From the sequence record PQ850594.1: a DNA stretch of 64,000 bases. One strand, given 5' to 3'. Position numbers and translations under genes: made by a program. This DNA comes from Escherichia phage AnnaHegner_Bas87. Under the pieces are notes generated by a model, which did not search any database, was not told the DNA's origin, and saw only the letters and a list, made by a program, of their open reading frames with translations. Shown piece by piece: positions 34,006 through 50,143 of the stretch (position 1 is its first letter; each line of letters starts with the position of its first letter).

Positions 34006-35450
34006 GAGTTTCTGTTTCCTTGTACAGATGATGCCAAATTGTTAATCATGTTACGAGCTGTTTCACGAGTCAGCGTAACACCTGCTAAGTTACTATCAAG
34101 TTCACCAACTAATTCACGAGCTGTTGCTCGGAGTTCTGCACCAAGTGTAGTGTTAGAATGAGCCAGACCATTACGACGACCGACAGGTCGAGGAGTATTG
34201 TTAGCATCATTAGCTAAAGATGCAAAACCAATACGAGCAGCTTCACGAGCGGCTATAGCTGCTACCCGATCTTCCGTAGGGGTTGGCAAATCACCAACTT
34301 CTACACGTTCTATATCACTAGAACGTAGACCCTGAACAACAGAGCTAACTGTTTCCCATGAACGACGGGAGCGCTGCAAATCACCCATAGATGGAGAAGA
34401 AGCAGGTCGAACAGTTACTCCACCTGTATCATGAGTGACGTGCCATGTACGAGTACCCATTCCAGAAGAACGGGCACTACCAAAACTACCAGTGAAAGTA
34501 TCACGAGGTGACTCTGTAGCAGGTGCTGCGAATCTTGTCTGTTGCCAAGAGTCACGTCTGTCAGTTCCCGGAGTCCAAGGCTGCGTAATTGCTTCAGCAC
34601 CTATAGTGGTTAATCCGCTAGACCATTCTGTCTGTAGATTAACTTCCTCGTCCAGATAACTACGACCCCTTTCCTGAGGAATGTTTAATATAGTTTCCAT
34701 CATCTTCAGGGTATAATGACGACGCTGATTCTGATATAAATTTACACCAGCCATAGGTCCAACTAAATCACTAATCAGGTGAACTTCTGGCTCACCGAAA
34801 GCTCCCATTGCAAGGTGCATGTATTCAGTAGAACTGCTATAAACTGCAACAGTTGCTTCAGGCCACTTCTTGTGAACATACTTCATTTCACGACTAGATA
34901 CCACAGGAATGTCACGAGTGTATGACATTGCAAACAAACCTTCGTTTGACACATACAGATTACCAAGAGTCATAAACCCTTGACAGATCATAGGAAAGCG
35001 ACGGCTTAAAGTATCCATATCCAAAGGTAGATTAATCATCATCTGGATTTTAACTTGATCAATCTCAATTTCCAGAATCTCTTGGAAAGTGAAAAGCGCT
35101 TCAGCATAGGTTGTCCCGTTAACAGGCTGAATTAGTCGAGATGTAACCTGAAGCCCCTTACTTTCTGTCCAAGATAAGAAGTTGTCAAGGAATAGTGCAG
35201 CATTACCTACGTTAGCAGGGCTGTTTTCTTGACGAGTGTTCCAACGAAGCCCTCCTTGAACTAGGAAGATATCAACATCATTCGGAGTTCTATTTTGAAA
35301 GAACGTATCACGGATAGCACCACCTGCAATAACAGGATAGATGCCATCAGGGACTACGTTATCTCTGATCAAATTACGAATCAGGTCAAGCCCTACACTG
35401 AGGGCTTCTCCTTCTTGAAGGTTCAATTCAGATAGTGGAATCTTAATCAT
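34002..35450 (-). CDS. Pol-beta-superfamily nucleotidyltransferase (CCA-adding/poly(A) polymerase-like head) with low-complexity C-terminal half
   Basis: PVIAGGAIRDTFF...PNDVDIFLV (GG.xRD plus DxD); C-terminal ~200 aa Ser/Arg/Thr/Gly-rich. Confidence 0.5.
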   Translation of the reverse strand: MIKIPLSELNLQEGEALSVGLDLIRNLIRDNVVPDGIYPVIAGGAIRDTFFQNRTPNDVDIFLVQGGLRWNTRQENSPANVGNAALFLDNFLSWTESKGLQVTSRLIQPVNGTTYAEALFTFQEILEIEIDQVKIQMMINLPLDMDTLSRRFPMICQGFMTLGNLYVSNEGLFAMSYTRDIPVVSSREMKYVHKKWPEATVAVYSSSTEYMHLAMGAFGEPEVHLISDLVGPMAGVNLYQNQRRHYTLKMMETILNIPQERGRSYLDEEVNLQTEWSSGLTTIGAEAITQPWTPGTDRRDSWQQTRFAAPATESPRDTFTGSFGSARSSGMGTRTWHVTHDTGGVTVRPASSPSMGDLQRSRRSWETVSSVVQGLRSSDIERVEVGDLPTPTEDRVAAIAAREAARIGFASLANDANNTPRPVGRRNGLAHSNTTLGAELRATARELVGELDSNLAGVTLTRETARNMINNLASSVQGNRNS

Positions 35451-35452
35451 TT

Positions 35453-36001
35453 CTACATTTTCCAGTTGAGAGATGGGGGATTCTTATAATCAAATCCAGC
35501 CATTTGGCAAAGACACATGTAAACCTTAACTGTCAAGTTAACGTCTTGTTCACAATACGTGAACATGTCTTCAGTGAAAGCATCCCATGCTTCTTCCTGT
35601 TCACCATAGTCACCCTTCAGCTCTCCCAGAAATTCGCCCCATTGCTTGAGGCCATGACCGCGAGGTCCGTGTCTAGGGTCGCCTTTGGGATATTCTGGAC
35701 TGTCACCAATACGGTCAGGCTTGAGGTATCGACTCAGGCACAGGGTATCAAAGACATTAAAACGAAAAGGTATCACATGAGAGTAGAATTTAAACAAAGC
35801 AGGAAGGTCAAAATCAATAATATTGTGACCTATTACTACATCAGCTTCTTTCAGTTTGTGTAGTGCTTCTTCAATTTGGTGAGGGCGATACCCCCACCGT
35901 TCTCCAGACAGTACATCAAATATCCATATACACCAGACATTCTGAATACCATCATAGAGGTTATCACCTTCAATATCAAACGCATACAGTTTCTTTACCA
36001 C
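35453..36001 (-). CDS. 3'-5' exonuclease, DnaQ-like (T7 gp5 N-terminal exonuclease homolog)
   Basis: FDIEGDN (Exo I), HNIIDFDLP (Exo II), YCEQDV (Exo III); collinear with the T7 DNA polymerase exonuclease domain. Confidence 0.75.
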
Positions 36002-37785
36002 GGACGTGCCTCCCCTTCTTGTGAAAGTAAGGAAGCTGCATCTTCTCCGTTGGTGACTGTAAACGGATTATCTTCATCAACTTCATGATCTTCTCGTTCC
36101 ACAAGACGACCTGTTTCGTTAATGTATTTGGTATAGCAAACCCCTGTCTGTCCATAGTTACGCTCTTTGAGCAGACGTATGATTGACAAGTTTTTACCTA
36201 ACCCATCCGCTTGTTTATTACGTTCGAAACCGATAATACATTGACACCAGCGCATTAATGAACGTGAGCCAGTAAACTGTACTTCTTTAACCTGACCACC
36301 TTCTTCGTGAGGGGCACCGCCCGCCGGAGCATTCAAGTGAGATAACACAAAAGCAGTGAAGTCTAATTCCTTACACATACCAGCAAGCTCTGAAGCAATC
36401 TTACTGATTTCTGTATTCACTTCGGATGGAGTTAAGTGAGATACCAATGCAGTGATGTTATCAAGAATGATAAATTTACACTGATTCTCAACTACCCAAA
36501 AGCGAATACACTGCTTAATGTCTTCCCATTCGTTCTGCCCAAAGTTGTCATACAAGAAAAACTTATCAGCGTATCGAAGTGCTTCATCTCGTAGCTGGCT
36601 TTCTTCGTACTCAACATCTGGTCGGTGGAAAGGTACAGATGCTGACTTACCTGCAATGTTCTTAACAGACATGCCTACCTTCTCTTCCAAGAAGAAGCCA
36701 CCACCATTAAAACCATGCTCAAGGCAAAGCCATGCTACCAGTTCGTGTGCGATTAAGGTTTTACCTGAACCAACACCACCGCCGATTGCAACCATCTCTC
36801 CCCAACGAATACCGAAAGTCATGTCGTTAAGAGTTTTCCACGGATAAGGGATACCCCACTCCGCTTTCTTCAGAGCATCTTCAAGGCAATCAAAAACTGT
36901 AACAGCGCCGGCAGGAGATTCCCGCTTAGCTGAATATTTCAGATTGTTGAAAAGCTCTTGACCTCTCCCTGCAAGTAACATGTCGTTTGCATCTTTGATT
37001 TCCTTTTCTTGTCCGTTATAAGTGAACGTACCTTTTGGAATTCTTGCAAACTTGACATGTGGGTACAGAGAACGACCTTTAGTCAATGCAATCTCTCCTG
37101 CATCATCATTGTCCATGCAGAGTACAATCTCCTCGAAACCATTAATAAAATCACGATTTCTTGACAACACAGAAGAGATTGAACCTGCACCGAACGGAAG
37201 AGAGACACAAGCAGGTTTGATATTAGTTGCGTTTGTGAACGCAGTAAGTACGTGGAATCCAGACATACAAGAGAGTGGGTCTTCGAAGATGAAGAGCTTC
37301 TTATTGTAAACATCGCCACGTTGTGCTTGAGCCATACCAAATAAGTCGGCTTCTTTCACATTACCTACATAATAGAACTTCTTGCTGTCTAGAAGTTTTA
37401 CTTCATATCCAACAATATTCCCATCACGTTCACGAGGGAAGAAGTAGCTGTCAGGAGTTTGACCATCTGTTTGGCTTAAACCGATACGGCATCCATAACG
37501 TTCAGATACAGCTTTAGGAATTAAGCGACGAGTCAACTCTCCCTGAGGAAGCTCTAAGCAATCGTCTAAGACTTCTCGGAGTTCTTCAGGGGACAGCTCT
37601 TTCTTTTCATTAGGAGTGGGCGTCGTTCCTTTCTCGAAGATTTCATACGCACCACATCTGTTACATGAACCCCACTCCTCACCGGACTCTTCATTTCGGA
37701 AGAGAATCATGTGATTGCGGGTCTTATCACGACCATGAGAGATACACTCTTTACAGCCTGTGTCTCCCAAAATGATCTTTGACAT
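35995..37785 (-). CDS. primase-helicase (T7 gp4-like)
   Basis: N-terminal zinc ribbon CKEC...CNRC, TOPRIM region, DnaB-type Walker [10 protein letters not shown]. Confidence 0.85.
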
Positions 37786-37820
37786 GCTCTATCCTCCTTG
37801 GAATTCCTTGAGCAATCTTC

Positions 37821-38027
37821 TTAATAAAACGATCGTATTTCTTCCCACACGTCATCTTGCAAGTTTCGGAAACCCTGCAAGGTTTGCTTTGTTCTGTGAA
37901 TAAATTCTTCAGAGTGCTTATCAGGTGTGAGCATACTGACAAACTTTTCATAGCGATTAATCTTCCACCGCATCTTTAAGTAGTCAGATTCAAGCTTTCT
38001 TAATTTCTGCCTGTCAGTTACTGTCAT
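37821..38027 (-). CDS. hypothetical small protein
   Basis: start moved to internal Met to limit overlap with the upstream gene. Confidence 0.3.
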   Translation of the reverse strand: MTVTDRQKLRKLESDYLKMRWKINRYEKFVSMLTPDKHSEEFIHRTKQTLQGFRNLQDDVWEEIRSFY

Positions 38028-38445
38028 CCTTCTCACCTGCCAGATATGCTGTCCAGTCACCCGATTCAACCAGAACATCTTGTTCTTCGTCGATGTGATA
38101 AATCCACGCTTCCACAGTTTCGCCGCTGTCCAATAATACTGGAATCAGCGTACGCTTATAAAAGGTGTATGGGTTATCATTGCCACGGTGACCTTCCAGA
38201 CCGTCATATGGGCCTTCCAGACCAGCTTGGGTTGTTTCAAAGACTTCTACACGAACAGGCTTACCATTGCTGTCATGCTCCAAAGATACACTTGGGAAGT
38301 ATGCTGTGCAATACTGATACAGGTTACAGTTGTTTACTGTCCACCCTTCACCAATAGACACACCACCTGCACGAGCATTGATAGCATGGTTGTGTTGACC
38401 TTTTCTCAAGCTTCCGTAAGTTGCAACTAGTACTTTATCAGACAT
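38014..38445 (-). CDS. gamma-glutamyl cyclotransferase-like (AIG2/GGCT fold) protein
   Basis: N-terminal VATYGSLRKGQHNH (YGSL motif). Confidence 0.55.
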   Translation of the reverse strand: MSDKVLVATYGSLRKGQHNHAINARAGGVSIGEGWTVNNCNLYQYCTAYFPSVSLEHDSNGKPVRVEVFETTQAGLEGPYDGLEGHRGNDNPYTFYKRTLIPVLLDSGETVEAWIYHIDEEQDVLVESGDWTAYLAGEKDDSN

Positions 38446-38511
38446 TATATTACCTTTTAGTGTTTCAGTTAAATTCGAACTAGCCTCCTCTTTCGAAGAG
38501 GCTAAAGCAAA

Positions 38512-38697
38512 TCATTCTACTTCGAAGTGTTTGATCACACCAGTCAACACATCAGATTGGAATGTACCCACTAGCTCTGTACCTCGGAAGAAGTTAACAC
38601 TTGTTCCAAGTGATTCAAAGCGATCTGCTTGAATGTCCAGAGATTGAATATTTCCTTCTGCTGACATTGTACGAAACATGATTGTGTATTTATTCAC
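38512..38697 (-). CDS. hypothetical small protein in ligase cluster
   Basis: 61 aa ending in Glu (KHFEVE). Confidence 0.35.
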   Translation of the reverse strand: MNKYTIMFRTMSAEGNIQSLDIQADRFESLGTSVNFFRGTELVGTFQSDVLTGVIKHFEVE

Positions 38698-38936
38698 AGA
38701 CTTGTTACTCCCTTATCTGCTTGTGCAATTGCGATGATACGCTCAGCACATTCCATTGAATATTTATCACCTCGTTTGAGGAAGGTGATGATTGCAGAGA
38801 ACTGATTACCAATCATTCTCTTATTTGTGATACCGAACTCTTCACAGAGTTGGTTGATAGCTTTACGAGAGCCTACAATCAGAGGCTCTTTTTCTTCGGT
38901 CATTCCACGGCTGATCAAATCTTCGATAGACAACAT
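38694..38936 (-). CDS. hypothetical small protein in ligase cluster
   Basis: ORF only. Confidence 0.35.
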   Translation of the reverse strand: MLSIEDLISRGMTEEKEPLIVGSRKAINQLCEEFGITNKRMIGNQFSAIITFLKRGDKYSMECAERIIAIAQADKGVTSL

Positions 38937-38962
38937 TACAAATTCCTTTTTGTTTAATTTAA

Positions 38963-40198
38963 TTACAGAGTTACTGCTACTTCGCTACCTTCAACATTGA
39001 CAGACTCTAACTTGCGAGGGTTATGAATCTGTACCGGATTAACCGGAACGTTCCAACCACTACGGTAGAAGTTACGACCATCACAGAACAAAATGACATT
39101 GGCAGACATTGCATTCGGTTGCAGGTTGTTATGGACATGACGGATATCTGCAATCCAATAACCACGAGACAAAGTGTAACCAGTAGGTGCATTACGAATA
39201 GTTTGAGTATTCATCTGACCTTCCAGTTGCATCTCTTCAGGAACTACATCTACCGAATCAACTGGCTGTGCTACCTGATCTTCCAGTGCAAAGTTTTCAT
39301 CATTAGCGCTTTCGCTGTCATCTACCAACTCACCGTCTCCATCTTCAATCGGAGTCTGGTAAACCACTTTATACTGAGGAGTATAGAGAGGGTTCTGAGC
39401 TTTAACAAACTCAAGGATGTTATGGCGGTAGGTATCCAGAGTTGTACCAGTCAGGCCCGGTGCTGTATTAACTTCCAGTACCCACGCTTCTTGACCTTTG
39501 GTGATAATATCAACTGCACCGAAATCCAGACCCATTGATTCAACAGCTTTCACCGCATTGATCAGAGAGGCGTCATTCGGAGCATCTGTGAAGGAGCTTG
39601 AGTAAACCCAGCCAGTGTGGTGATTACGAATATCTTCACGATAGTTAGGGTCTTCGCGATAACCATTGCGACGAATCTTCTTCTGAACATAGGTGATTAC
39701 ACCTTTGAACACATGGACACGCCACTCACGACGTGGGCCTTGAATGCCTTTAGTGTACAGTTCAGCTCGACCAAGACCATCACCCGGTTCTACAACAACA
39801 ATACCCGAACCAGAGTGACCAGTCAGCTCATGGCGCTCATACACAATATTACCAGTGTTTGACCACTCCTGAGCAGTCTCTTGAACATCTGTGTATTCCA
39901 CAGTTTTAACACCTGCTTGGTCCATCACACTGAAAGCACGACGTTTGTTCGCTGCCATATATAAGGCTGCGGTACGGTTAAGGACGGTTGCAGAACCAAA
40001 GAATGATTCAGGATAGCGACGGTTCCCGTAGTTAACAACCACATCACCTTCACGAGAACGCCAGCGGCTATTCTCTGAAAGAAGACCCATCACGTTAGCA
40101 TTGATGCGTTCATCACGGATAGTATCACTGATAGCAGATACTAGAGCGTTAACAGAATCAGACGGGCCATACGGAAGAACACGGATACGAGTAGTCAT
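38963..40198 (-). CDS. ATP-grasp ligase (RimK/glutathione-synthetase-like) with C-terminal extension
   Basis: EWRVHVFKG ... AWVLEVNTAPGLTG matches ATP-grasp nucleotide-binding strands. Confidence 0.65.
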   Translation of the reverse strand: MTTRIRVLPYGPSDSVNALVSAISDTIRDERINANVMGLLSENSRWRSREGDVVVNYGNRRYPESFFGSATVLNRTAALYMAANKRRAFSVMDQAGVKTVEYTDVQETAQEWSNTGNIVYERHELTGHSGSGIVVVEPGDGLGRAELYTKGIQGPRREWRVHVFKGVITYVQKKIRRNGYREDPNYREDIRNHHTGWVYSSSFTDAPNDASLINAVKAVESMGLDFGAVDIITKGQEAWVLEVNTAPGLTGTTLDTYRHNILEFVKAQNPLYTPQYKVVYQTPIEDGDGELVDDSESANDENFALEDQVAQPVDSVDVVPEEMQLEGQMNTQTIRNAPTGYTLSRGYWIADIRHVHNNLQPNAMSANVILFCDGRNFYRSGWNVPVNPVQIHNPRKLESVNVEGSEVAVTL

Positions 40199-40200
40199 TT

Positions 40201-40431
40201 TTAGATACCTTTTAGTTTAAGAATTTCGTTACGACAGGATTGAATTTTAGCTTCGATTGCCCAATACTCAGCGAACATTTCGTCTTCTTGGGCATCGCTT
40301 GGAGAGTCAATTAAGTTAAAAGCAAACGGATACAGCTTTCGCTGCTCCGTTACCAGTTGTTGAAGTCGGAGTTGTTGATACTCCAGCATTGTCAGGTGAG
40401 GCTTAGCTCCCTTGCTTGACATGAGGCTCAA
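40201..40431 (-). CDS. hypothetical small protein in ligase cluster
   Basis: ORF only. Confidence 0.35.
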   Translation of the reverse strand: MSLMSSKGAKPHLTMLEYQQLRLQQLVTEQRKLYPFAFNLIDSPSDAQEDEMFAEYWAIEAKIQSCRNEILKLKGI

Positions 40432-40636
40432 CTTTAATCCCCTTCATTTTAACATAGTCAGCCAACACGTTATTGATAACGGTTGGAAAAGGGATTTCTA
40501 CTGGAGAGTCAACCAGCTTCCCAATACCTTCTTGCATCCACTTCTGGATTGCTCGGAGGTTATCACATCCTGTGCTTGTCATCGGAATACGGCGGGTAGT
40601 TACCACGTTATCCAACATCAGTTTACGAACTTCCAT
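40403..40636 (-). CDS. hypothetical small protein in ligase cluster
   Basis: ORF only. Confidence 0.35.
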   Translation of the reverse strand: MEVRKLMLDNVVTTRRIPMTSTGCDNLRAIQKWMQEGIGKLVDSPVEIPFPTVINNVLADYVKMKGIKVEPHVKQGS

Positions 40637-40647
40637 AACTATACCTC

Positions 40648-42681
40648 TTAGTGTTTACCTTTACAGTAATCTGAATTACAGATCACCCTGTTTTCTTTGT
40701 TCAGTGAGCAAGTTTCTGCATCACGCCACGGAATTTGTTTATAACAGACTGCACAAAACCCAATTGAAGTCCAGAGGGCTTTTGTAAACTCAGCTGTTCG
40801 TTGTCCATCGTAACTGACAACTGTTTTTCGGAGAGAGGTTGACTTTTCTGGAAATGTCTCCGCTTTCTCAGCGGGTACCTCCTTTGGGGCATTCTTTGGA
40901 CCATAAACAGAGATGGCATAAGTATCACCACCACGTTTTTCCAAATACGAATTAGGAACATCTGCAAGTGTGATGTCCCCTGAACGTTTTGCTGAGCTGA
41001 CCATTACAATCATACGGCTAAGCATACGTTCATCAACACGAACAGCTACTTCAGGACGACGTGGGTTGGTTGTGTCTACTGCTTTAGTCCAAATATAACC
41101 TTCAGATAGAGTAACATTCTTTACTTTATCTTTGATTTCTTTGGAGCAGATATAACAAACGTCTTCACCACGAAGTTTACTCATTTCGTTGTCAAACTCG
41201 AAATCAGTCTTGACTTCACCACAGATAGCACATACACCCAAAGGCACATCTTCTTCCTCTTCAGAGGTTTTAGATAACGCTTCGAAGCATTCTGGATGCC
41301 AGTATGCCTGATAAGCAAACACAGCCTTACGAGCATCTTTCCAGTCAATGTGCTTATCACAACCACCACAGTCACCATGAGAGTGAGATTCCCAGAACTT
41401 ACGAGTGACTTCTACACCATTCTTAGTGATGAAGGAGTCCTCTGCATCAAAAGGGATATCATCATCAAAATCAGCAGTAGTGCTTTGAGGCTCCTTATCT
41501 GTAGCATCAACAAACAGCCCTGAAGTTAGTACGAGGCGAATCATACTGTCCACTTCGGAGATACAAGCGATTGTCCCGCGATATACTACCTTTGGGTTTT
41601 CAAGAGCCTTAAGATATTCATCTTTGGCTACGTTGTGAACATCCCCTTCGACATACTCTTGGGCTTTATCATCGTAGATGTAACCAACCATCTTACCACG
41701 ATCTGTGTTGTTATAAGCATGGAACTCGTGAGGAATAATATCCACACGACCATCACGACGATAAGGAAGACCACGATCGGCAGCCAGTTTGTTCTGGTCT
41801 TCAATCGCTTTACGACGACGAATGTCTCCGCTTGTCACGCCGGGCTTGTCGTCTTTGTTTCCGTAAATGTCGCTTGTGCTGCTGCTTGGTTTGTTTGTCT
41901 GTTGGTTCTGATAAAGAGAGGAGTTCGAGTAATAGCCGCCCCAGCGACTCGTTACCGTAAAAACCGGAAGCTTGTGCTCCACCTCTTGAACCAGAGTCAT
42001 ACGACTGTTAGACACATCAAAGATATACTCAGTTCCCACTTTACACTCGAAGTGGTCATTGATACGGTTCTTGTGGGATTTAGAACGCTCTAAAATCCAC
42101 ATAAGCATAGCTTCTTCAGAAGCCCCAAACCAATCCAAACCACAGCGGGCTAGGTGGAAAGGACGCTCATCATTACGGATAATGTGAAGCGTGTTGTCTT
42201 TAGCATCATGCCAAATCAAAGTGAATGCACCATCCAGTTTTTGGATAGTCTCTGCTGCTCCAATGGTGTTAATTGAGTGGCAGATGTTTTCACTATCAAC
42301 TTCGAAACGCTTACTGTCAGGAAGGAGATCTTGATCTAACAGGGTTCCATTATGAACCAGAGTAATATCCCCGTGAGTAAATGGGTGAGCATTTCGAGCA
42401 TTGACAGCCCCACGAGTGGCATGTCGGCTGTGACCAACAATCCACGAAGGAGGAACTACGTAGTTCGTAAGCCCTTTGGTAATATTTGTATATTCTGTCT
42501 GGAGCATAAAAGCATAAGAAGGAAGAGCTTCTTTATAAGAGAAGACTTGCTTTTCACCTTTACGCTGACCAAACACACCAGTTGAGTGCTGTCCACGGAA
42601 AACACCAGCATACAGAAGTTGGTTGAAAATGTCCAAATCTGCTGAGGTCATGTTGCCGCCAGCTAATACGATACCACAAAT
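40648..42681 (-). CDS. class II glutamine amidotransferase / Ntn-hydrolase-fold protein fused to Cys-rich C-terminal domain
   Basis: GATase-II signature (RGQHSTG, HSRHATRG, HNGTL); upstream in-frame ATT-TGT-GGT-ATC-GTA supplies the CGIV nucleophile, so start set to ATT 42679-42681 with AGGTGG RBS. Confidence 0.65.
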   Translation of the reverse strand: MCGIVLAGGNMTSADLDIFNQLLYAGVFRGQHSTGVFGQRKGEKQVFSYKEALPSYAFMLQTEYTNITKGLTNYVVPPSWIVGHSRHATRGAVNARNAHPFTHGDITLVHNGTLLDQDLLPDSKRFEVDSENICHSINTIGAAETIQKLDGAFTLIWHDAKDNTLHIIRNDERPFHLARCGLDWFGASEEAMLMWILERSKSHKNRINDHFECKVGTEYIFDVSNSRMTLVQEVEHKLPVFTVTSRWGGYYSNSSLYQNQQTNKPSSSTSDIYGNKDDKPGVTSGDIRRRKAIEDQNKLAADRGLPYRRDGRVDIIPHEFHAYNNTDRGKMVGYIYDDKAQEYVEGDVHNVAKDEYLKALENPKVVYRGTIACISEVDSMIRLVLTSGLFVDATDKEPQSTTADFDDDIPFDAEDSFITKNGVEVTRKFWESHSHGDCGGCDKHIDWKDARKAVFAYQAYWHPECFEALSKTSEEEEDVPLGVCAICGEVKTDFEFDNEMSKLRGEDVCYICSKEIKDKVKNVTLSEGYIWTKAVDTTNPRRPEVAVRVDERMLSRMIVMVSSAKRSGDITLADVPNSYLEKRGGDTYAISVYGPKNAPKEVPAEKAETFPEKSTSLRKTVVSYDGQRTAEFTKALWTSIGFCAVCYKQIPWRDAETCSLNKENRVICNSDYCKGKH

Positions 42682-42758
42682 TTTCTAATCCACCTGAAGG
42701 GTAAACCCTTTCATCTAATTAACCTTTAAATGCGCCCTGTATAAGAGCGCCCGTTGTG

Positions 42759-43859
42759 TTACAGTAGTCGTTCTAATTGCATTTCCAGATGGTCTGGAAT
42801 ATAACCAGTGACGTTATCATCACTGCTACCTGATTCACGCATCAATGCAAACATGTGACGAATTTCACGAACCGTTGCGATTCGAGTGCTTTCAATCTGA
42901 GGGGTGTAGTAGGTCATGATCTCTTCGTAGACACTGTTGGCATTACCGCGCACATATCCCAAGAAACCATAGAAGTCATTCATATCACGTAAGTTGATAA
43001 GGACTTCACCATCAGGGCCAGTCTGTTGCACACGAACACGACCAACCAAAGTCACAGATTGCTCACGACAGAAGAGAATATCACGAGCAAGACGATACCC
43101 TTCAGTGAGATCACTGTCTCTTGGAGTATAGTCTAGGGGTAGATGTTGAATCATAGGAGCGAAGCGCAGCTCATTCAACTTCTCAACATAAGCTTCATTG
43201 TCTAAATCTGCATATTCAACAGCCAGTTTCTTGAGAACCAAGAAGCGGTTGACCAGATTCAGAAGTTGGCTCTTTTTCCACTTCGGCTCTGAGATACGGA
43301 ACTCAACAGAACCAAATTGAGATAGAGGCAAAAGATTAAGGGAGGTATATTTATCCCAGCTATTAACAAGAGAGTGGAAGAAAGCTTCCCCGTCTCGGTT
43401 GAACGCTGACGAAGCATTCATAACTTGTGCTTGAACGACAGCAAAAGCTGGACAGAAGTTGCTACGATAGCGATGGTATCCAGAACATTTGAACATCATC
43501 TTTTCATAGAACGTCCATCCAAGAATAACTTTCTTAAGGATGTTACTATCAGCGTCACGCATATCCATATGAACATGAGTGGAGCAGCGCCAAGTTCCCT
43601 CGGCTCCAGAATCCTGTACTGCTTCACTCAGATTGTTAATAGCACGAAGTAATTCTTCACCGTTGTAAGGTCGTGCACATACTAATTCACAACCATCACG
43701 AAGAGAGCCATCTTCAGTACAAACCCACATATCAGCGTCAATGTCAGTTGTACCTTCGACTTCTAACTCAATACCAACACCACACTGAAAAGCAATACTT
43801 GGATGCGGTTCAGATAAGCGAGGGTTACGGTATCCAAAAACTTGTGCTACGGTTGTCAT
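42759..43859 (-). CDS. glutamine-synthetase-like amidoligase (GCS2/YbdK-like carboxylate-amine ligase)
   Basis: GVGIELEVEG N-terminal acidic strand and STHVHMD His motif. Confidence 0.55.
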   Translation of the reverse strand: MTTVAQVFGYRNPRLSEPHPSIAFQCGVGIELEVEGTTDIDADMWVCTEDGSLRDGCELVCARPYNGEELLRAINNLSEAVQDSGAEGTWRCSTHVHMDMRDADSNILKKVILGWTFYEKMMFKCSGYHRYRSNFCPAFAVVQAQVMNASSAFNRDGEAFFHSLVNSWDKYTSLNLLPLSQFGSVEFRISEPKWKKSQLLNLVNRFLVLKKLAVEYADLDNEAYVEKLNELRFAPMIQHLPLDYTPRDSDLTEGYRLARDILFCREQSVTLVGRVRVQQTGPDGEVLINLRDMNDFYGFLGYVRGNANSVYEEIMTYYTPQIESTRIATVREIRHMFALMRESGSSDDNVTGYIPDHLEMQLERLL

Positions 43860-44482
43860 AATGATTCCACCAACTCTACATTATATGATGACAGGTCTGA
43901 AGAAATATGCTTGAACTTCTCCAGAAGGTTTAAAGATTGACGACCATTGTCGCCATAACCAGCTTCAAGAAGCACGTTTCCAACGTAAGCCCCTTTGTAA
44001 TAAACTTTTCCATCGACAGGATTGATATAGATGAAACGAGTAACCAACCCTTCAAACTCTGGATTAAACAGGTTGTACACCAAATCACCCGGAATCGAAC
44101 GTCCGAGAGAAGGTGGAGTACCACGAAGTTTATTCCCCATCAAGCCTTTAGCTCGCTGACGAACAGGGTTGATATGGGTCCAGCTCACCATGTTATTACC
44201 ATGCTGAAGGTATCCTACATCTGGAGACTCCAGAATGAGGCTGTGATCAAACACTGGGATATTACTAACAATCTGACGTTCAAACTGACCTTCGGAGTTT
44301 TTAGTCCAGCGTTCCGCCTCAAACACTAAAGACATTTCAGCGTCGTGTGAGTAGTCGTCAATATCAAAGTTACCTTGCTGACGAACATCAAGCACATATA
44401 GAGGGAGGTTTTTACCATCAGGTGATCGCTGGGCAATCCATGTTCCACAATAATAGTGTTGAAAATCTCTTAACAAGCTCAC
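43856..44482 (-). CDS. hypothetical protein in ligase cluster
   Basis: ORF only; overlaps neighbours by 4 nt. Confidence 0.4.
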   Translation of the reverse strand: MSLLRDFQHYYCGTWIAQRSPDGKNLPLYVLDVRQQGNFDIDDYSHDAEMSLVFEAERWTKNSEGQFERQIVSNIPVFDHSLILESPDVGYLQHGNNMVSWTHINPVRQRAKGLMGNKLRGTPPSLGRSIPGDLVYNLFNPEFEGLVTRFIYINPVDGKVYYKGAYVGNVLLEAGYGDNGRQSLNLLEKFKHISSDLSSYNVELVESL

Positions 44483-44491
44483 AATATCACC

Positions 44492-45298
44492 TTATACAAT
44501 CTGGAGTTTAGAGGAGAATTTATCCGCTTCTTTAACATCGTTACTGTTGATGATGTTGTGAAGCTTTTCAATTGGAAGGCGAGAATGAAGTGACATCAAT
44601 ACTTCCATATCACAGCCTTGAACAACCTTATCAACTTGCTCATAAACAAACTTGCGGGTTGACTTCTCGCCAATCCAGAAGTTAGAAAGAGAACGATATT
44701 CAATACCGTAATCTTTGTAGCGAATGGCAGAAGCCTTTCCGTATAACTCTTTACGACGAGTGTCTTTATCCATGATCACAGCTGGCAAGGACAGGAAGTA
44801 ATCACACAACACACCCAACATCATTTGAGTCTGACGACTAATTTCCAGCGTACCAGTGACGCCAAGGTGAACATGACCGCCAGCAGTACGCAGACCTTTG
44901 TCTGTCGCTACTGGAGATGGGTTTTTCTGACCAGTGAAGGCGTTGAAATCAGGAGTACAACCAAATACAAAAGCTGACGGGTGGAATGATTCAAGCTCTT
45001 CTGAAGTGAACACATGAGAGCTAATCCCAAGCGCTGCTTCCAGACCACGATCATTCAGGATTTTGTTAGTCAGATCAATACCACGCTGAATATTATCATC
45101 AAACGCTTCAAATCCTTTCTGTGGGTTAATATCGAATTCAGCCAGAACGTTGTCTTCTTGAAGACGAACATCAGGGGCCAGATCAATTTTGTTGTCTTTA
45201 GAGCAGCCCAGCTTACCAGCCACAGAGGTGATAATACCAGAAGCAGTACGAACAAACATTTCAGGGTCAGAACCAATAAGGAAAGCACGCTTAGTCAT
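44492..45298 (-). CDS. second amidoligase-like protein (weak)
   Basis: start moved to internal Met (MTKRAFLIGSDPEMF); GSDPEMF acidic strand and GGHVHLGV motif. Confidence 0.4.
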   Translation of the reverse strand: MTKRAFLIGSDPEMFVRTASGIITSVAGKLGCSKDNKIDLAPDVRLQEDNVLAEFDINPQKGFEAFDDNIQRGIDLTNKILNDRGLEAALGISSHVFTSEELESFHPSAFVFGCTPDFNAFTGQKNPSPVATDKGLRTAGGHVHLGVTGTLEISRQTQMMLGVLCDYFLSLPAVIMDKDTRRKELYGKASAIRYKDYGIEYRSLSNFWIGEKSTRKFVYEQVDKVVQGCDMEVLMSLHSRLPIEKLHNIINSNDVKEADKFSSKLQIV

Positions 45299-46241
45299 TG
45301 TAATACTCCACGAGTTCATCAAAAAGGGAAACAACACGAGCACCAGCTTCTTCTGGTGTCATTGAGGAAGGTACTGCTTGCATCAGTCGTTCGATAAAAC
45401 TGCGAACAGTGATTCTGTCCATACGCTGATCTAATACTTCTCGCTTGTGACCTGCACAAGTTGACCAGAGACGCAACCACTCACTCATACTTTCATAATG
45501 GTCAGGGTCTTGGTCACGACGGCGTGCCATACGACGGAGAACTCCATCATTATGGTTTCGTACATAACCATCTCGGTTATCATCAACACCGAACACATTC
45601 TGAACCCATACGTTTTCAGAAAATTCATCAGTGGTGCAAATTAGTGGCAGAAATGCAATTGCACTCATGTCACCATCAAAATAAGTCGCTGCTGACTCAT
45701 CGGTTGAGTCTACGTCATTACTATAACACCAGCGACCAAAGAAGTTACGACTTAAACCAGCTAAGCGTAGAGCTAAACCGATTCGTTGTCGCTTAAGCAA
45801 CTCTTCCTTGTCTTGTACGCCTTCCTGAAGGAACTCCATTCCATTAAAATCACCATCCAAATAACTACGGATGGTCATTAGTCCAGTAAACACCTTGTCT
45901 GCTGGATGGTTTCGAAGGTTCACGGCAATGGAGTTCACCGAAGTGACAGAGAACATATCTTTATAGCAAGACATTGAGTTAAAAATGTCTGTTGCTTCAA
46001 CTAAAGCTCTTTCGATATCTTTAGCCGGCACGCCATAAAAATTGTGAGGCCAGAAGTTAATAACTTCAATTTCTGAAGTTCTGTCACGAAGGCTTGTTCG
46101 GTTACGACTTTCACCGTTAATGTCTGTAACAGAATACATGTGCATACAGTTAAAAGTACCAAAGCAAGCTCTTCCTTTGAACACTGACTCACCGAAATCC
46201 TCTGCCGGTGTTACCGGAGCAATCGATGCGGAGATTGACAT
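45291..46241 (-). CDS. hypothetical protein in ligase cluster
   Basis: ORF only. Confidence 0.4.
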   Translation of the reverse strand: MSISASIAPVTPAEDFGESVFKGRACFGTFNCMHMYSVTDINGESRNRTSLRDRTSEIEVINFWPHNFYGVPAKDIERALVEATDIFNSMSCYKDMFSVTSVNSIAVNLRNHPADKVFTGLMTIRSYLDGDFNGMEFLQEGVQDKEELLKRQRIGLALRLAGLSRNFFGRWCYSNDVDSTDESAATYFDGDMSAIAFLPLICTTDEFSENVWVQNVFGVDDNRDGYVRNHNDGVLRRMARRRDQDPDHYESMSEWLRLWSTCAGHKREVLDQRMDRITVRSFIERLMQAVPSSMTPEEAGARVVSLFDELVEYYND

Positions 46242-46249
46242 ATTCGCCT

Positions 46250-47467
46250 CTATTTATTAAAGAATAATTTTTCCATAATGGTTTCCCACTCTTCTGAGGG
46301 GAGGGTTGAGAACCCGTTTCCGTGAAGCCTGTTTGTCATGCAACTAATAATATTGTACATGTTGTAGCTTCGGGTGGATTCTGTTCCATTGTTCCAGTTA
46401 TAACCGAAAACAATTTTATCGAAGGAGGTTTTATCCGTAGTTACTTCTCGGATGAACTCAACCAAGAGCGATTTCTCTGTGATGACCGCACGTTCACCAT
46501 CTGGCAGATTACAATACTGAGGAAGAAGGATTGGTAAGAACATCGAATTGTTCACTCGACAATCGCGCACACCTTCACTGCGATAGATTAGGCTTGAGAA
46601 GTCTTCATCACGCAGGTGTCCTTCACCTTCAGTGTATTCACACTGTCGCCATTTGGTCTGGCGAGGTTTAACCATTGTACTACCAACGCCTACTGTATAC
46701 AGAGACGCTTGGAAGATACATGAATCGTAATCATTCCCTGTTAAAGCAACTTGCTCATTGCCGAACACATCCACTGAAGAGTTGATCAGTCGGCTGAATG
46801 CAAGAGAGGCTAAAGGGGACCAACCTTTCTTATACATCTTGTTCAACATTTCATACACAGCAGATTTTTCATCATCTGTATAGAATGTACGATTCAGCAT
46901 CAGATAGAACAGAGCGCGATCAGCAGGACAACCATCAGTACAAACACCCATGAATCCTACTTCATGCCATACCAGACATGAGTCAGAATCCTTATCCATG
47001 AATGCTTCAAAGGCTTCCATTACAGCCCTGTCAGTAACATCAGGACGGTTGTTTTCTTCTGCCCATGTTTCTACATGAGAAGGAGGACGAGGGTCTCCAT
47101 TCTCCACCCCTTCGCGGAAATATTGAGTGGTAATAGGCTTTTTATCACCATAACGTTTTACACCATAAGCGGGAAGGTGTGTACCAGAGTTCCAGATGTA
47201 CTTAATTTCGGACATAGGCATCATGTTTTCAAGAACGTTCTCTTCAGCAGTGCCTTGACGAACCATCATATTTTCACTCCACACCTTAATGCGGATATTC
47301 CAGCCGTAGTTGCTGTCATACGTGTTATAATAATCAGGATCACCATCTTCATCTTCATCATAATCACCACCCTGATAGTAACCTGCTTTCAGGAAACCAT
47401 AACAAGGAGGCCAGATGGTTACAACATCATCTGATTCTTTCCAGCTTTGAAGTGTTACAGGGAACAT
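46250..47467 (-). CDS. hypothetical protein in ligase cluster
   Basis: 405 aa ORF, acidic N-terminal patch; no motif recognised. Confidence 0.4.
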   Translation of the reverse strand: MFPVTLQSWKESDDVVTIWPPCYGFLKAGYYQGGDYDEDEDGDPDYYNTYDSNYGWNIRIKVWSENMMVRQGTAEENVLENMMPMSEIKYIWNSGTHLPAYGVKRYGDKKPITTQYFREGVENGDPRPPSHVETWAEENNRPDVTDRAVMEAFEAFMDKDSDSCLVWHEVGFMGVCTDGCPADRALFYLMLNRTFYTDDEKSAVYEMLNKMYKKGWSPLASLAFSRLINSSVDVFGNEQVALTGNDYDSCIFQASLYTVGVGSTMVKPRQTKWRQCEYTEGEGHLRDEDFSSLIYRSEGVRDCRVNNSMFLPILLPQYCNLPDGERAVITEKSLLVEFIREVTTDKTSFDKIVFGYNWNNGTESTRSYNMYNIISCMTNRLHGNGFSTLPSEEWETIMEKLFFNK

Positions 47468-47478
47468 CTTTTACCTCT

Positions 47479-47841
47479 TTACTCTGCTACCAAAAGGCTC
47501 AGAGATTTGCGAATGTAGTCAATACTACGGAAGTTTCGATAGTTCTCTTGGAAGCGCATTTTTTCAAACTCTGCTTCCTGAAGCTCTACCTCTGCTGCTT
47601 TATATCCTGATAAAGCTAAACTTACCACATCCTGAGGTAAGGTATTACGACGGCGAATAAGATATTTATTCGCTTTTAGTTTACCTTGTGCACGAGCCAT
47701 TTTGGCCTTTGCCGCCTTGATACCATGAGAAATCCAAAGCAGTTGCTGTTTCAGATCTTCCTCATCCATACCACCTAAATCATTTGCTACTTTATGAAGC
47801 GTAGACAGGTTCACATGGCCTTTAATGGGGCGTAGGTTCAT
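47479..47841 (-). CDS. hypothetical protein
   Basis: ORF only. Confidence 0.4.
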   Translation of the reverse strand: MNLRPIKGHVNLSTLHKVANDLGGMDEEDLKQQLLWISHGIKAAKAKMARAQGKLKANKYLIRRRNTLPQDVVSLALSGYKAAEVELQEAEFEKMRFQENYRNFRSIDYIRKSLSLLVAE

Positions 47842-48208
47842 AACTTCTCCTGTTTGTCACATTGATTGGTTAGCCAGTTGTAAGACCCTCTGTTATTCTT
47901 GCTTAACTCGCAAGATGCAAAAGAGTACATCCTGACAAACCCCACAGTGGCTAAGCAAATAAAGATTGCTGCCAATAAGAATTTAGCTTTCAACTTATTA
48001 TCCATACAACCTCTTCTTTGAACTTAAAAAAGGACTCTCATAAGAGAGCCAAGCTTTAAGGCCAATTAAATAGATATCACCCAATATCTGTGGATAACCT
48101 GCTCTTAAAATATTCTATCCGACGGATGTTCGAGGATTATTCCTCTCCCTAGCATCGGCCCCATACGGGAAAGATTAAATTAAGATTAGGTTAGTTGAGC
48201 CAGAATAG

Positions 48209-48243
48209 CTCACATAGCCCTCTGATACTCACGAGGGCTATAG
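48209..48243 (-). repeat. conserved hairpin element, copy A
   Basis: CTCACATAGCCCTC-loop-GAGGGCTATA, 9 bp stem, immediately 3' of gene 48247-48498. Confidence 0.6.
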
Positions 48244-48246
48244 ATG

Positions 48247-48498
48247 TTACTCTGTATCTCCGTCGAAGCGGAGGATTGCTGTCGGAACAGGAATAACTGC
48301 CATGTCAATCTCTAAACGGAAGAGATGACCTGTGCTCAACTGAACTGCTGTTACCGGCTTAGCGATACCAGCAACAGAGGCAGAAGGGATTCGGATAAAG
48401 AATTCCCCCGGATATTCAACCGAACGAAACACATCTCCCGGTGTCATATCTTTTACTTGAACAGTAGGCTCAGGAGGTGTTTTATTGGAAATTTGCAT
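48247..48498 (-). CDS. small protein, PGDVFR family
   Basis: PGDVFR...G.LFRLE...VIPVP shared with 53775-54005. Confidence 0.45.
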   Translation of the reverse strand: MQISNKTPPEPTVQVKDMTPGDVFRSVEYPGEFFIRIPSASVAGIAKPVTAVQLSTGHLFRLEIDMAVIPVPTAILRFDGDTE

Positions 48499-48731
48499 TA
48501 CAAACCTTTCTTAGCACGATCTTTGGCAGTCTTGCCAGTGCGAATACGGTGGGAAACATTAACCAGTTCGCCGCCTTCGACGATGGTTACGCTTTTATTT
48601 TTCGCAATATCGAATACAGTCTTCTCTGTACCGCCCAGACGAATCTGTTTAGGTTCGCTGTGGGTCTGAGTTGATTTAGACTGGAACTGGAACGGCTGAC
48701 GGATGGCATCAATTGCGCTAACTTTAGACAT
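48498..48731 (-). CDS. hypothetical small protein
   Basis: ORF only. Confidence 0.35.
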   Translation of the reverse strand: MSKVSAIDAIRQPFQFQSKSTQTHSEPKQIRLGGTEKTVFDIAKNKSVTIVEGGELVNVSHRIRTGKTAKDRAKKGL

Positions 48732-48758
48732 GCTTTATTACCTTACATTAAAGAGAGA

Positions 48759-49187
48759 TTAAACAACAAATTGGAACGCTTCGTATCCAAACTTGTATGA
48801 GAAGTCATGCTTGAATTTCACTACACGACCACGATCACGGAAAGATTTCAGACGACTAATAAAGCCAGCCATCGGCTCAGGGTCAATAGGGCTACGAATC
48901 TTCATAGCTACAGAGTGCAGCTTGAAGCGTTTACCAGTGCTACAGGCCATCATCACATACTCCATACGAGTAGTCCAGATGTTGAGCACCATGCTTGTTT
49001 TCTCCGCTGACCAACCAGTCTTGCGGGCGATTTCTTTATGGACATTAAGCTCCAAAGGAAGAGGGAATTGCTTGTTGAATGAAGCCGGATATAGCTTGAC
49101 CAGAAGGTCAATGTTTTCTTTATACGTTAAGTAAGCCAATTTCTTGCTTACGTTAGGGAATTTCCCAGACATTTTTTGAAGCTCCAA
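48759..49187 (-). CDS. ProQ/FinO-domain-like RNA-binding protein
   Basis: KKLAYLTYKE...YPASF...PLPLELNVHKEIA...WTTRMEYV...GKRFKL parallels the ProQ N-terminal domain. Confidence 0.45.
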   Translation of the reverse strand: MELQKMSGKFPNVSKKLAYLTYKENIDLLVKLYPASFNKQFPLPLELNVHKEIARKTGWSAEKTSMVLNIWTTRMEYVMMACSTGKRFKLHSVAMKIRSPIDPEPMAGFISRLKSFRDRGRVVKFKHDFSYKFGYEAFQFVV

Positions 49188-49371
49188 AACAGCGCCGAAA
49201 AGAGAGGCGTCATAGTAGCTAAAGGGAGGAGAGAAGAGGGATTATTTACTTACCTTTTTCTGTCCATTGATATACCAGATAACTGAACCGTCAGGCTGTC
49301 GTTGACCGAAGCCTTTCAAGTTAACCATTTCTTCTTCAGAGTAGGCACGTTTTCTCACTGAGTTTCTCCTG

Positions 49372-49629
49372 TCAATAGAAGGTGTGTGTAGAGTCATCGT
49401 TCATACATAACCAAACGAAGAAGACAATCACACAGAAAGCAATAACACCGAGAACTGCAAGGATTATAGTGTTAGCTAATGTGGTATCTAACACGCTTTG
49501 CAGGTACATAAAGAATTGTACGATACCACATAACCCTAGCACGACCCCAACGACAATGAGGAGCCAATATGTGCAGAGAAGGACTGCATCTAATAGTGAT
49601 ACATACTTTGGATGATCTTTATGTCTCAC
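49372..49629 (-). CDS. small multi-pass membrane protein
   Basis: three hydrophobic segments. Confidence 0.4.
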   Translation of the reverse strand: MRHKDHPKYVSLLDAVLLCTYWLLIVVGVVLGLCGIVQFFMYLQSVLDTTLANTIILAVLGVIAFCVIVFFVWLCMNDDSTHTFY

Positions 49630-49885
49630 TGATCTTTTCCACTAAATCCAGAGTTGCTGATTCAAATACAACACCAACTACCATATTAGGTGCCATATTA
49701 CGAACGTATCCGCTCTGCATAGACACGGCCCGAGAGTATTCAGAACCGTTAGAACTTTTGTTTACCTTCATGTAAAGGGTTTGCTCTTTATCTTCTTTCA
49801 GAGTAAAGAAAGAGCCGGGAAGAAGCCTCTGAACAGTCAGAGGGATATCTGCAACATGAGTCTTATTGATAGTAAGAACTGTCAT
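49619..49885 (-). CDS. small protein, PGDVFR-family-like
   Basis: LLPGSFFTLKEDKEQTLYMKV resembles the family N-terminus. Confidence 0.35.
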   Translation of the reverse strand: MTVLTINKTHVADIPLTVQRLLPGSFFTLKEDKEQTLYMKVNKSSNGSEYSRAVSMQSGYVRNMAPNMVVGVVFESATLDLVEKISET

Positions 49886-49888
49886 TGC

Positions 49889-50143
49889 TTATTCCTTAAT
49901 AGTTGCTTCAGCTTTAATAGGAATAACAGCAACATCTTTACGAGGTGCGGTCGCTCGACCTGTGTTAAGGCAGGCTACAAGTCTGTGCTCATCCGCACCT
50001 TTAATACACAGTCGAGTTGAGAACTCGGTAGATAGTAAGATGTACAAATCGTCATCTTCACTGTTAGGATACATGAAGCAATCCCCAAGACGCAGAGCGC
50101 TGAGTGGTATTGCGTTCTTACTGGCTGGTTTATTAACTTTCAT
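49889..50143 (-). CDS. small protein, PGDVFR-family-like
   Basis: LRLGDCFMY...VAVIPIKAEA. Confidence 0.35.
   Translation of the reverse strand: MKVNKPASKNAIPLSALRLGDCFMYPNSEDDDLYILLSTEFSTRLCIKGADEHRLVACLNTGRATAPRKDVAVIPIKAEATIKE

Follow-up and report, generated by a model that had tools for sequence, protein, structure and literature searches.

The amide-ligase module of a phiEco32-like podophage probably acts through gamma-glutamyl chemistry

The stretch of 64,000 nucleotides from Escherichia phage AnnaHegner_Bas87 that was analyzed here (PQ850594.1; hereafter the window) carries on its minus strand a contiguous run of amide-ligase genes (38014-47467). We find that this run is a member of the phiEco32/LUZ24-type module, with the same families in the same order (COOH-NH2 ligase, Amidoligase_2, class-II glutamine amidotransferase (GAT-II), RimK-like ATP-grasp ligase, AIG2-type gamma-glutamyl cyclotransferase (GGCT)) beside a primase/helicase gene, and that the chemistry of the module is probably gamma-glutamyl. 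As a tentative explanation, and the one that we favor, the proteins of the module would form a soluble multi-enzyme pathway in the cytoplasm, in which amide bonds of the gamma-glutamyl type are first built and later trimmed, on a small molecule or on a precursor present in the cytoplasm.

The genes that a first-pass annotation, made by a model from the sequence, had listed for this region are all present on the minus strand, and its enzyme classes (GGCT-like, ATP-grasp, N-terminal nucleophile (Ntn)/GATase-II-like and two glutamine synthetase (GS)-like amidoligases) agree with searches of Pfam, PHROG and NCBIfam (Table 1). Its presentation of the cluster as an uncharacterized candidate system has to be given up as a claim of novelty: the cluster is not new but was already catalogued by comparative genomics, being the phiEco32-type module of Iyer et al. 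(2009); the ligase family PF14395 is named after phiEco32, and GenBank records of near-identical phages carry these annotations already. It was right that no phage version has a demonstrated substrate, as none was found in the literature searched, in which no experiment on the function of the module is reported either. The definition of the module is extended here by a putative adaptor protein (h208), a novel pair of paralogs, DUF7195 and a variant with a Peptidase_C26 hydrolase.

Conservation and distribution of the module

The region 38014-47467 matches 98 phage records. The top match is Escherichia phage OliverMaurmann_Bas86 (99.1% identity over the whole query), followed by SU7-like phages, and phiEco32-like Kuravirus phages match at 60-80%. 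Judged by these records, the window is from a lytic podophage of the Gordonclarkvirinae (phiEco32-like). In Bas86, the same minus-strand run is labeled gamma-glutamyl cyclotransferase, 'ribosomal protein S6 glutaminyl transferase', 'L-glutamine-D-fructose-6-phosphate aminotransferase', amidoligase enzyme and COOH.NH2 ligase, and the primase/helicase and then the PolA exonuclease subunit come after the amide-ligase genes.

A pattern-plus-tblastn scan of IMG/VR with the COOH-NH2 ligase alignment yielded 80 loci, in which the ligase is 32-95% identical. To this set, LUZ24, BUCT695 and two Privateer-like contigs were added; open reading frames (ORFs) were called throughout and searched with iterated hidden Markov models seeded from the window proteins. 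Of the loci, 46 were non-redundant (ligase <80% identical) and of sufficient length. Each of the genes for Amidoligase_2, the amidotransferase and the ATP-grasp ligase was found in 45 of them, that for the 208-aa protein h208 in 40 and that for the GGCT in 31, and a primase/helicase within 10 kb downstream in 32. The gene order is near-invariant: COOH-NH2 ligase, h208, Amidoligase_2, amidotransferase, ATP-grasp, (GGCT), primase/helicase. The catalytic residues of all five enzymes are kept in at least 85% of 49-76 distinct sequences. This clustering is far beyond chance, and the co-occurrence that the first-pass annotation expected among related phages extends to distant ones, with the same genes in the same order in the 80 IMG/VR loci. 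The gene order of UFV-P2 and LUZ24 is identical to that of the window, phiEco32 itself is among the ligase matches, and nothing essential in these syntenic modules differs from the window.

Among isolated phages, 309 records of INPHARED contain the COOH-NH2 ligase family (Pseudomonas 121, Escherichia 93, Vibrio 22, Aeromonas 11, and others), whereas 100,044 species-representative bacterial and archaeal genomes gave 8 matches, all of them on contigs of 0.5-12.5 kb from metagenome-assembled or draft genomes. From this distribution of ligase sequences, the module is one of free, virulent phages, rather than of cells or integrated prophages. Mass spectrometry of the related phage SU10 detected homologs of the ATP-grasp ligase, the amidotransferase and YtfP/GGCT among the 'early gene products' (PMC4281155), and the module genes are therefore expressed in this relative.

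A separate observation concerns Poriferisphaera phage ZRK32 (OP650935.1, a 21.9-kb 'Planctomycetes phage' record), whose COOH-NH2 ligase shares 64.8% identity with the ligase of Pseudomonas fluorescens-type Vicosavirus-like phages. It is about as close to these as the ligase of Pseudomonas phage tf, and the host assignment of ZRK32 may merit a second look.

Table 1. Genes of the amide-ligase module and of its surroundings in the window.
Feature	Coordinates	Strand	Remarks
482-aa 'nucleotidyltransferase'	34002-35450	-	between PolA exonuclease subunit and dCTP deaminase
Primase/helicase	35995..37785	-	flanking replication gene, outside the module; annotated in Bas86
Gamma-glutamyl(amine) cyclotransferase, AIG2/GGACT type	38014..38445	-	143 aa
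Small ORF ending ...FEVE	38512..38697	-	61 aa; 6/85 loci
Small lineage-specific ORF	38694..38936	-	80 aa; no Pfam match; 11/85 loci
RimK-like ATP-grasp ligase	38963..40198	-	411 aa; C-terminal extension of ~120 aa
Small lineage-specific ORF	40201..40431	-	~73-76 aa; annotated in Bas86
DUF7195 small basic protein	40403..40636	-	77 aa; directly after the amidotransferase gene; PF23825 (3.3e-19)
Class-II (Ntn) glutamine amidotransferase	40648..42681	-	677 aa; ATT start codon
Amidoligase_2 (PF12224)	42759..43859	-	366 aa; GS-like carboxylate-amine ligase class
h208, predicted beta-barrel protein	43856..44482	-	208 aa; between the two ligase genes; apparently non-catalytic
COOH-NH2 ligase, phiEco32 type (PF14395)	44492..45298	-	268 aa from MTKRAF; GCS/GS-like carboxylate-amine ligase class
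hypB	45291..46241	-	316 aa; motifs CFG, NSMSCY, PADKVFTGLM, GYxRN
hypA	46250..47467	-	405 aa; motifs PPCYGF (N-terminal), PADRxLFYLMxNR, WRQ, GHxRDED
120-aa basic protein	47479..47841	-	directly upstream of the module; PHROG 11370; membership uncertain

Enzymes of the module

Two of the enzymes are putative carboxylate-amine ligases related to GS and gamma-glutamylcysteine synthetase (GCS), an assignment based on Pfam membership together with the acidic-strand, HxH and ExR motifs. The COOH-NH2 ligase matches PF14395 (2.8e-8, 33.7 bits vs a cut-off of 25) and PHROG 3815 (2.5e-111), and with its LUZ24, BUCT695 and Privateer-like orthologs it is 39-58% identical, the acidic residues, HxH and ExR being kept. 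The first-pass annotation had counted this protein, at 283 aa, among its GS-like ligases; the class is borne out by PF14395, but the start is most likely the conserved MTKRAF at 45298, and not the GTG at 45343. Amidoligase_2 matches PF12224 (3.1e-8, 34.2 bits vs a cut-off of 22) and PHROG 7469 (4.1e-142), and ExExE, R54, HxH and ExR are kept in at least 85% of 73 sequences.

In the window, the COOH-NH2 ligase is encoded by an intact gene. In Bas86 (locus L001, 12479-13787) the gene is interrupted by an insertion of ~500-600 bp with an HNH endonuclease and annotated as a joined CDS, and the same split is likely in most of the closest relatives, judged from alignment lengths. HNH genes lie inside the module in UFV-P2 and KarlSchell_Bas89 as well.

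The third ligase matches the RimK-type ATP-grasp family of Pfam under the cut-off (7e-4) and PHROG 2599 with high significance (5.8e-169), and the Lys, Arg, Glu and Asn residues of the ATP-grasp fold are conserved among its homologs. In NCBIfam its matches are MptN (5.8e-9) and rimK_fam (2.9e-6), all far under their cut-offs. The test for a RimK equivalog failed (PRK10446, 21.8 bits vs a cut-off of 331), with only the ATP-grasp core motif aligning. By these scores, the database label 'ribosomal protein S6 glutaminyl transferase' is misleading for this protein.

The amidotransferase matches GATase_6 above the Pfam cut-off (2.6e-14). It consists of a glutaminase domain of ~215 aa, a weakly conserved region of ~150 aa and three Cys-rich, zinc-ribbon-like motifs, which are lineage-specific. 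The size and the Ntn class proposed for it in the first-pass annotation are correct, but only if translation starts from the ATT at 42681: with this start the product is (M)CGIVLAGG..., of 677 aa as in Bas86, and it is the only start with which the catalytic Cys is kept as the residue after Met. A conserved AGGTGG lies 8 nt upstream of the ATT, an in-frame TAG precedes it, and the GlmS/PurF N-domain model aligns from residue 2. The N-terminus MCG[ILV]V is found in 77 of 79 homologs (start codon ATG in 66, ATT in 11), and homologs from Kuravirus, Privateer-like phages and Aeromonas BUCT695 hardly differ in the 20 nt before the ATT. This rare start codon may serve a deliberately low or regulated translation. 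ORF finders that are limited to ATG, GTG and TTG starts lose the catalytic Cys and truncate the protein. The gap of 77 nt between Amidoligase_2 and the amidotransferase (42682-42758, minus strand) contains two hairpins, one just before the Shine-Dalgarno sequence; its folding energy of -22.2 kcal/mol (z = -2.2) is not clearly significant.

An ordinary role of this protein in nucleotide biosynthesis, which would have spoken against a dedicated amide-ligase system, is not indicated, as Pfam, NCBIfam and an analysis of the C-terminus gave only the glutaminase domain and no synthase or acceptor domain (PRTase, SIS, AsnB, GltS). The amidotransferase would therefore serve another enzyme of the module with ammonia, or act as a gamma-glutamyl amide hydrolase; in the first case we infer a separate partner enzyme that accepts the ammonia. 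Identity with GlmS was rejected (TIGR01135, 33.7 bits vs a cut-off of 418, aligning only over residues 70-194, with no SIS domains), and by the same scores the database name 'GlmS' is misleading for the module protein. The EgtC model of NCBIfam is a weak match (0.0063).

The cyclotransferase matches GGACT of Pfam (8.9e-16, 59 bits vs a cut-off of 22.8) and PHROG 2520 (4.2e-41). Both the YGSL motif and the catalytic Glu84 (DxLEG) are present, and Y10, G11, L13 and E84 are kept in at least 85% of 49 sequences. Directly upstream of the ligase, 17 loci encode a Peptidase_C26 or class-I amidotransferase-like gamma-glutamyl hydrolase (Pfam 1.3e-14) in place of the 316-like gene. The GGCT is absent from 7 of the 11 complete loci with C26, vs 3 of the 21 with a 316-like or LUZ24-type upstream gene (Fisher p = 0.013; as the loci are related, this value is indicative only). 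Two unrelated gamma-glutamyl-cleaving enzymes alternate in the module, which also has ligases of the glutamate type and an enzyme that splits glutamine. Combined, these features make gamma-glutamyl chemistry the probable chemistry of the module.

Proteins without annotated function

The 405-aa protein (hypA), the 316-aa protein (hypB) and h208 gave no match in Pfam, NCBIfam, PADLOC or PDB sequences, searched as single sequences or as profiles. The stop codon of hypB overlaps the start of the COOH-NH2 ligase gene, and its family is homologous to genes of ~300 aa that directly precede the ligase in 32 further loci (hhalign 96.5%, E 1e-9). This intermediate, marine family also matches the family of hypA (hhalign 88%, E 2.9e-6). 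The direct comparison of the two families is weak (E 0.078); because the marine family matches both, hypA and hypB are, by profile comparison, distant paralogs. Their common motifs are an N-terminal C[FY]G, PAD[RK]xxFxxLMxxR, W[RV]Q and G[HY]xR[DN], and the conserved Cys, His, Asp and Arg, with Cys22, Arg184, Asp248, His284 and Asp287 among them, look enzymatic, suggesting a putative activity. No solved PDB structure matches the confident structure model of hypA, which possibly represents a new fold. The LUZ24 proteins gp14 and gp15 could not be joined to the two families (E 0.01-0.5; pairwise BLAST), and share with them only the position and the N-terminal CFG motif.

From its structure model, h208 would be a small beta-barrel adaptor resembling Tudor/SH3/KOW-like barrels. 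It has a conserved basic loop that is predicted to be disordered (PVRQRxKG..NK), and among its homologs there is neither a conserved terminus nor an invariant Lys. No docking domain of the kind of the recognition element of ribosomally synthesized and post-translationally modified peptides was found to be common to the C-termini of the ATP-grasp ligase and the amidotransferase and to h208, and no domain fusions were obvious by eye in unusually long homologs. The module proteins are acidic (pI 4.6-5.9) and show no membrane-like or signal segments, which argues for a cytoplasmic pathway.

The small ORFs were compared across 85 loci. Six small proteins had been described as lacking any recognizable motif, which is not so for one of them, the product of ORF 40403-40636, a member of DUF7195 that is found in 25 of the loci, LUZ24-like ones included. 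Homologs of ORF 40201..40431 occur in 11 loci, and in each case they lie between DUF7195 and the gene for the ATP-grasp ligase. Since it is found in so few loci, the ORF that ends in Glu (38512..38697) does not qualify as a conserved partner. In the 85 loci, the module is not accompanied by any small protein whose terminal Glu, Gln or Gly is conserved. The idea that the small ORFs are carrier or substrate peptides thus finds no backing, these being lineage-specific.

Proposed pathway

In the pathway that we tentatively favor, both GS-like ligases and the RimK-like ATP-grasp ligase would each spend ATP on activating a carboxylate, in the form of an acyl-phosphate, and join it to an amine, so that three ligases could form up to three amide bonds, at least one of them involving glutamate. 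The Ntn amidotransferase, with its catalytic Cys1, may deliver ammonia from glutamine to one of the ligases, converting a carboxylate into an amide, or alternatively hydrolyze a gamma-glutamyl amide, like the related EgtC and Dug3. The GGACT-type cyclotransferase would take off a gamma-glutamyl group as 5-oxoproline, a step that could be performed by the Peptidase_C26 hydrolase in some lineages. The h208 protein, encoded between the two ligases, may be a scaffold or a substrate-presenting subunit, and the hypA/hypB pair might add a further activity, maybe that of a Cys-dependent hydrolase or transferase. The pathway most likely runs early in infection, alongside DNA replication. A nucleotide precursor of peptidoglycan, in line with the proposal of 2009, would be one candidate substrate within this pathway.

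The order of the reactions, the gamma-glutamyl logic and the preference for a small molecule over a macromolecular substrate are inferred. We rank a small molecule or precursor first because there is no conserved tag or carrier, because the amidotransferase has no acceptor domain, and because the module resembles small biosynthetic pathways. Several points weigh against this explanation. The chemistry is deduced from enzyme classes alone; neither ligase profile found sequence relatives in the PDB, the GS-like fold being a putative one, and the COOH-NH2 ligase and Amidoligase_2 families show no detectable relation to each other. The Tudor/SH3-like h208, the zinc ribbons of the amidotransferase and the C-terminal extension of the ATP-grasp ligase are more typical of enzymes that dock on macromolecules, and the nearest characterized relatives of the ATP-grasp ligase include RimK, a protein modifier. 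A version of the pathway that acts on peptidoglycan precursors would lack a Mur-ligase or membrane component, and would have to suit hosts as unlike as Enterobacteria, Pseudomonas, Vibrio and marine OM43.

A counterpart for every enzyme class of the module exists in the gamma-glutamyl cycle and glutathione metabolism, which comprise GshA (GCS), GshB (ATP-grasp), GGCT/ChaC and the Ntn gamma-glutamyl hydrolases Dug3 or EgtC. In contrast to these systems, there is no orthology (the scores are far under the cut-offs), the module has two GS-like ligases and phage-only proteins, and no thiol chemistry is indicated. The Puu pathway of E. coli combines PuuA, a GS-like gamma-glutamylputrescine synthetase, with PuuD, a Peptidase_C26 hydrolase; it is catabolic and is not known to include an ATP-grasp, Ntn or GGCT enzyme. 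The pairing of a GS-like ligase with a C26 hydrolase recurs in the 17 C26 loci, whereas the window itself has the 316-aa protein instead. In the synthesis of the butirosin side chain, BtrJ (ATP-grasp) and BtrG (GGCT-like) use the gamma-glutamyl group as a transient protecting group. The likeness lies in glutamylation by an ATP-grasp enzyme, after which a cyclotransferase takes the gamma-glutamyl group off again; the butirosin pathway differs in needing an acyl carrier protein and pyridoxal phosphate-dependent and monooxygenase enzymes, none of which is present in the module. Pupylation (PafA/Dop) and the LysW/RimK systems likewise employ ligases, GS-like or RimK-like, by which glutamate is joined in (iso)peptide bonds, but the module contains no small Pup- or LysW-like protein with a conserved C-terminal Gln, Glu or EDWGE. 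The thymidine hypermodification clusters (Lee et al., 2021, PMC8989533) are similar in being phage clusters near replication genes; unlike in these, no genes for the synthesis of 5-hydroxymethyldeoxyuridine (5-hmdU), for the kinase 5-HMUDK or for aGPT-Pplase were found in Pfam scans of the module and ten large ORFs.

The module takes up about a tenth of the genome in cultured lytic podophages and is nearly as conserved as the adjoining replication genes. Its carriers include Pseudomonas and E. coli phages that are considered for therapy, as well as many marine virome contigs. Since its first computational description seventeen years have passed; solving the module would reveal a new phage-made metabolite or a new covalent modification, and would also assign a role to the family of the 405-aa protein, the model of which is unmatched in the PDB. 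Bas86, 99% identical over the cluster, offers a tractable system in E. coli K-12.

Alternative explanations

Modification of proteins, the main rival, is possible, though on the unlikely side. The target would be a protein of the phage or a universally conserved one of the host, such as a factor of replication or translation, and the ligases would attach glutamate or a short non-ribosomal peptide to a side chain or terminus of it. The adduct would be edited or removed by the amidotransferase, the GGCT and C26, and the target would be recruited by h208 and the hypA/hypB pair. GGACT-type enzymes act on epsilon-(gamma-glutamyl)-lysine, and with PafA/Dop there are GS-like ligases that act on proteins. 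The relationship of the ATP-grasp enzyme, which is nearest to the RimK-family glutamate ligases, and the predicted Tudor/SH3/KOW-like barrels of h208, typical binders of peptides or nucleic acids, are consistent with such a role. The zinc-ribbon motifs of the amidotransferase would fit as well, but these are lineage-specific, and the adjoining primase/helicase in 32 of the 46 loci may just reflect the common descent of podophages. The module enzymes share no common docking domain, and no small tag or carrier is conserved, the Glu-ending ORF being restricted to 6 of the 85 loci. The more specific tagging system suggested by the first-pass annotation finds no support, as a co-inherited tag is missing and the only near-universal non-enzyme, h208, has neither a conserved terminus nor an invariant Lys; the module apparently uses no ribosomal tag.

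Remodeling of peptidoglycan, for superinfection exclusion or in preparation for lysis, by way of three unusual peptide links in the stem peptide, we regard, if taken by itself, as unlikely. Three ligases combined with glutamine-dependent amidation do resemble stem-peptide chemistry, such as the amidation by MurT/GatD or of the AsnB type. No other hypothesis has been published; two later papers relay this one and attribute it to Iyer et al. 2009 (PMC10580990, PMC11945000). The first of these credits Iyer, Abhiman, Burroughs and Aravind (2009) with predicting that superinfection is prevented through a change made to the cell wall by the phiEco32 amidoligase and GATase (PMC10580990). The LUZ24-like set of GGCT, ATP-grasp, aminohydrolase, amidoligase as well as COOH-NH2 ligase has been termed a 'putative peptidoglycan modification module', with the alternative idea that the wall is prepared for lysis (PMC11945000). 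The module proteins are, however, soluble, with no signal or membrane segments, and could therefore reach only cytoplasmic peptidoglycan precursors; Pfam showed no Mur-ligase domains among them. Confinement to virulent phages and absence from chromosomes and prophages fit poorly with an exclusion of the type practiced by lysogens. Moreover, GGACT enzymes act on L-gamma-glutamyl groups, and are not known to act on the D-isoglutamyl of peptidoglycan.

Equally doubtful is a broader conjecture, in which the module would add a non-ribosomal adduct of the gamma-glutamyl type to a phage replication or virion protein, to a conserved host protein, or to DNA at a level below Nanopore detection. In this case the hypA/hypB pair would form a new class of Cys-dependent transferases or hydrolases, and the adduct would aid restriction resistance or host takeover.

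Hypermodification of DNA or nucleotides, by which the module would decorate the bases of phage DNA, either before replication or after it, and thus explain the restriction resistance of the Gordonclarkvirinae, appears very unlikely. The module is adjacent to and co-oriented with replication genes, and viromes show amidoligases and amidotransferases beside thymidine-hypermodification genes (Lee et al., PMC8989533). Moreover, 11 EcoRI, 18 EcoRV and 8 EcoKI sites remain in the window, although it belongs to a phage group that is reportedly restriction-resistant. Against this stands the Pseudomonas phage Rembedalsseter, which has a complete module and in which a comparison of native and amplified DNA by Nanopore sequencing found no modification motifs (PMC11780129). 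The window has ThyX, whereas Pfam detected no ThyA-like hydroxymethylase or DNA kinase among ten further large ORFs, and aGPT-Pplase is matched by none of the module proteins. Nor do any of these occur in the flanks of 54 representative loci, which contain ordinary replication and nucleotide genes only. All module proteins are acidic. Across the whole window CCWGG is absent, vs ~143-161 sites expected, BamHI, SalI and SacI sites are lacking as well, PstI and KpnI sites occur once each, and GATC is at about half of expectation. Such extreme avoidance of restriction sites is contrary to what a modification with a broad protective effect would permit. Finally, dCTP deaminase and the 482-aa 'nucleotidyltransferase' are other candidates for restriction resistance. 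We downgraded this explanation in view of the Nanopore results for Rembedalsseter, the Pfam scans, the flanks of the 54 loci and the site avoidance, and the module is probably not a DNA modification system.

A function as auxiliary metabolic genes that boost the glutamine, glutamate or nitrogen metabolism of the host, the class in which several genome papers place the amidoligase and the amidotransferase, is highly improbable for about seven co-inherited genes in a fixed order, with phage-only proteins that have no PDB match, no close cellular orthologs, and amidotransferase and ATP-grasp scores far under the equivalog cut-offs of GlmS, PurF, AsnB and RimK.

Flanking genes and additional observations

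PADLOC models of defense systems gave 0 matches at E <=0.01 among 10 proteins, comprising nine module proteins and the 482-aa protein. The latter had no match in Pfam, NCBIfam, PADLOC or PDB sequences either, and the authors of the BASEL collection suspect this gene, together with the dCTP deaminase, behind a DNA modification. The actual family-A polymerase is encoded elsewhere in the window (24390-26237).

Matches to the promoter consensus of the phiEco32 sigma factor were not above chance in the window, with none clearly placed before the module, and no Rfam RNA families were found in 36000-50000. The small ORFs ahead of the module have a terminator-like hairpin with a T-run upstream of them (48033-48050, minus strand). 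The 120-aa basic protein encoded directly upstream of hypA has homologs at the same position in 11 of the 85 loci.

Further upstream, a 142-aa protein (48759-49187, minus strand) is a weak match to ProQ/FinO (1e-5, 25.9 bits vs a cut-off of 27). Homologs were found in four loci (L003, L010, L011, L013), one of them with a clearer ProQ match (4.1e-9), and the protein is possibly a phage RNA chaperone. A tRNA-Arg(TCT) gene is located at 51385-51460 on the minus strand. In the two Privateer-like contigs (L004 1090-4787, L005 810-4276), genes for phosphoribosyl pyrophosphate (PRPP) synthetase, nicotinate phosphoribosyltransferase (NAPRTase) and TerC are found a few kb upstream of the module; these may form an NAD-salvage set, apparently unrelated to the module.

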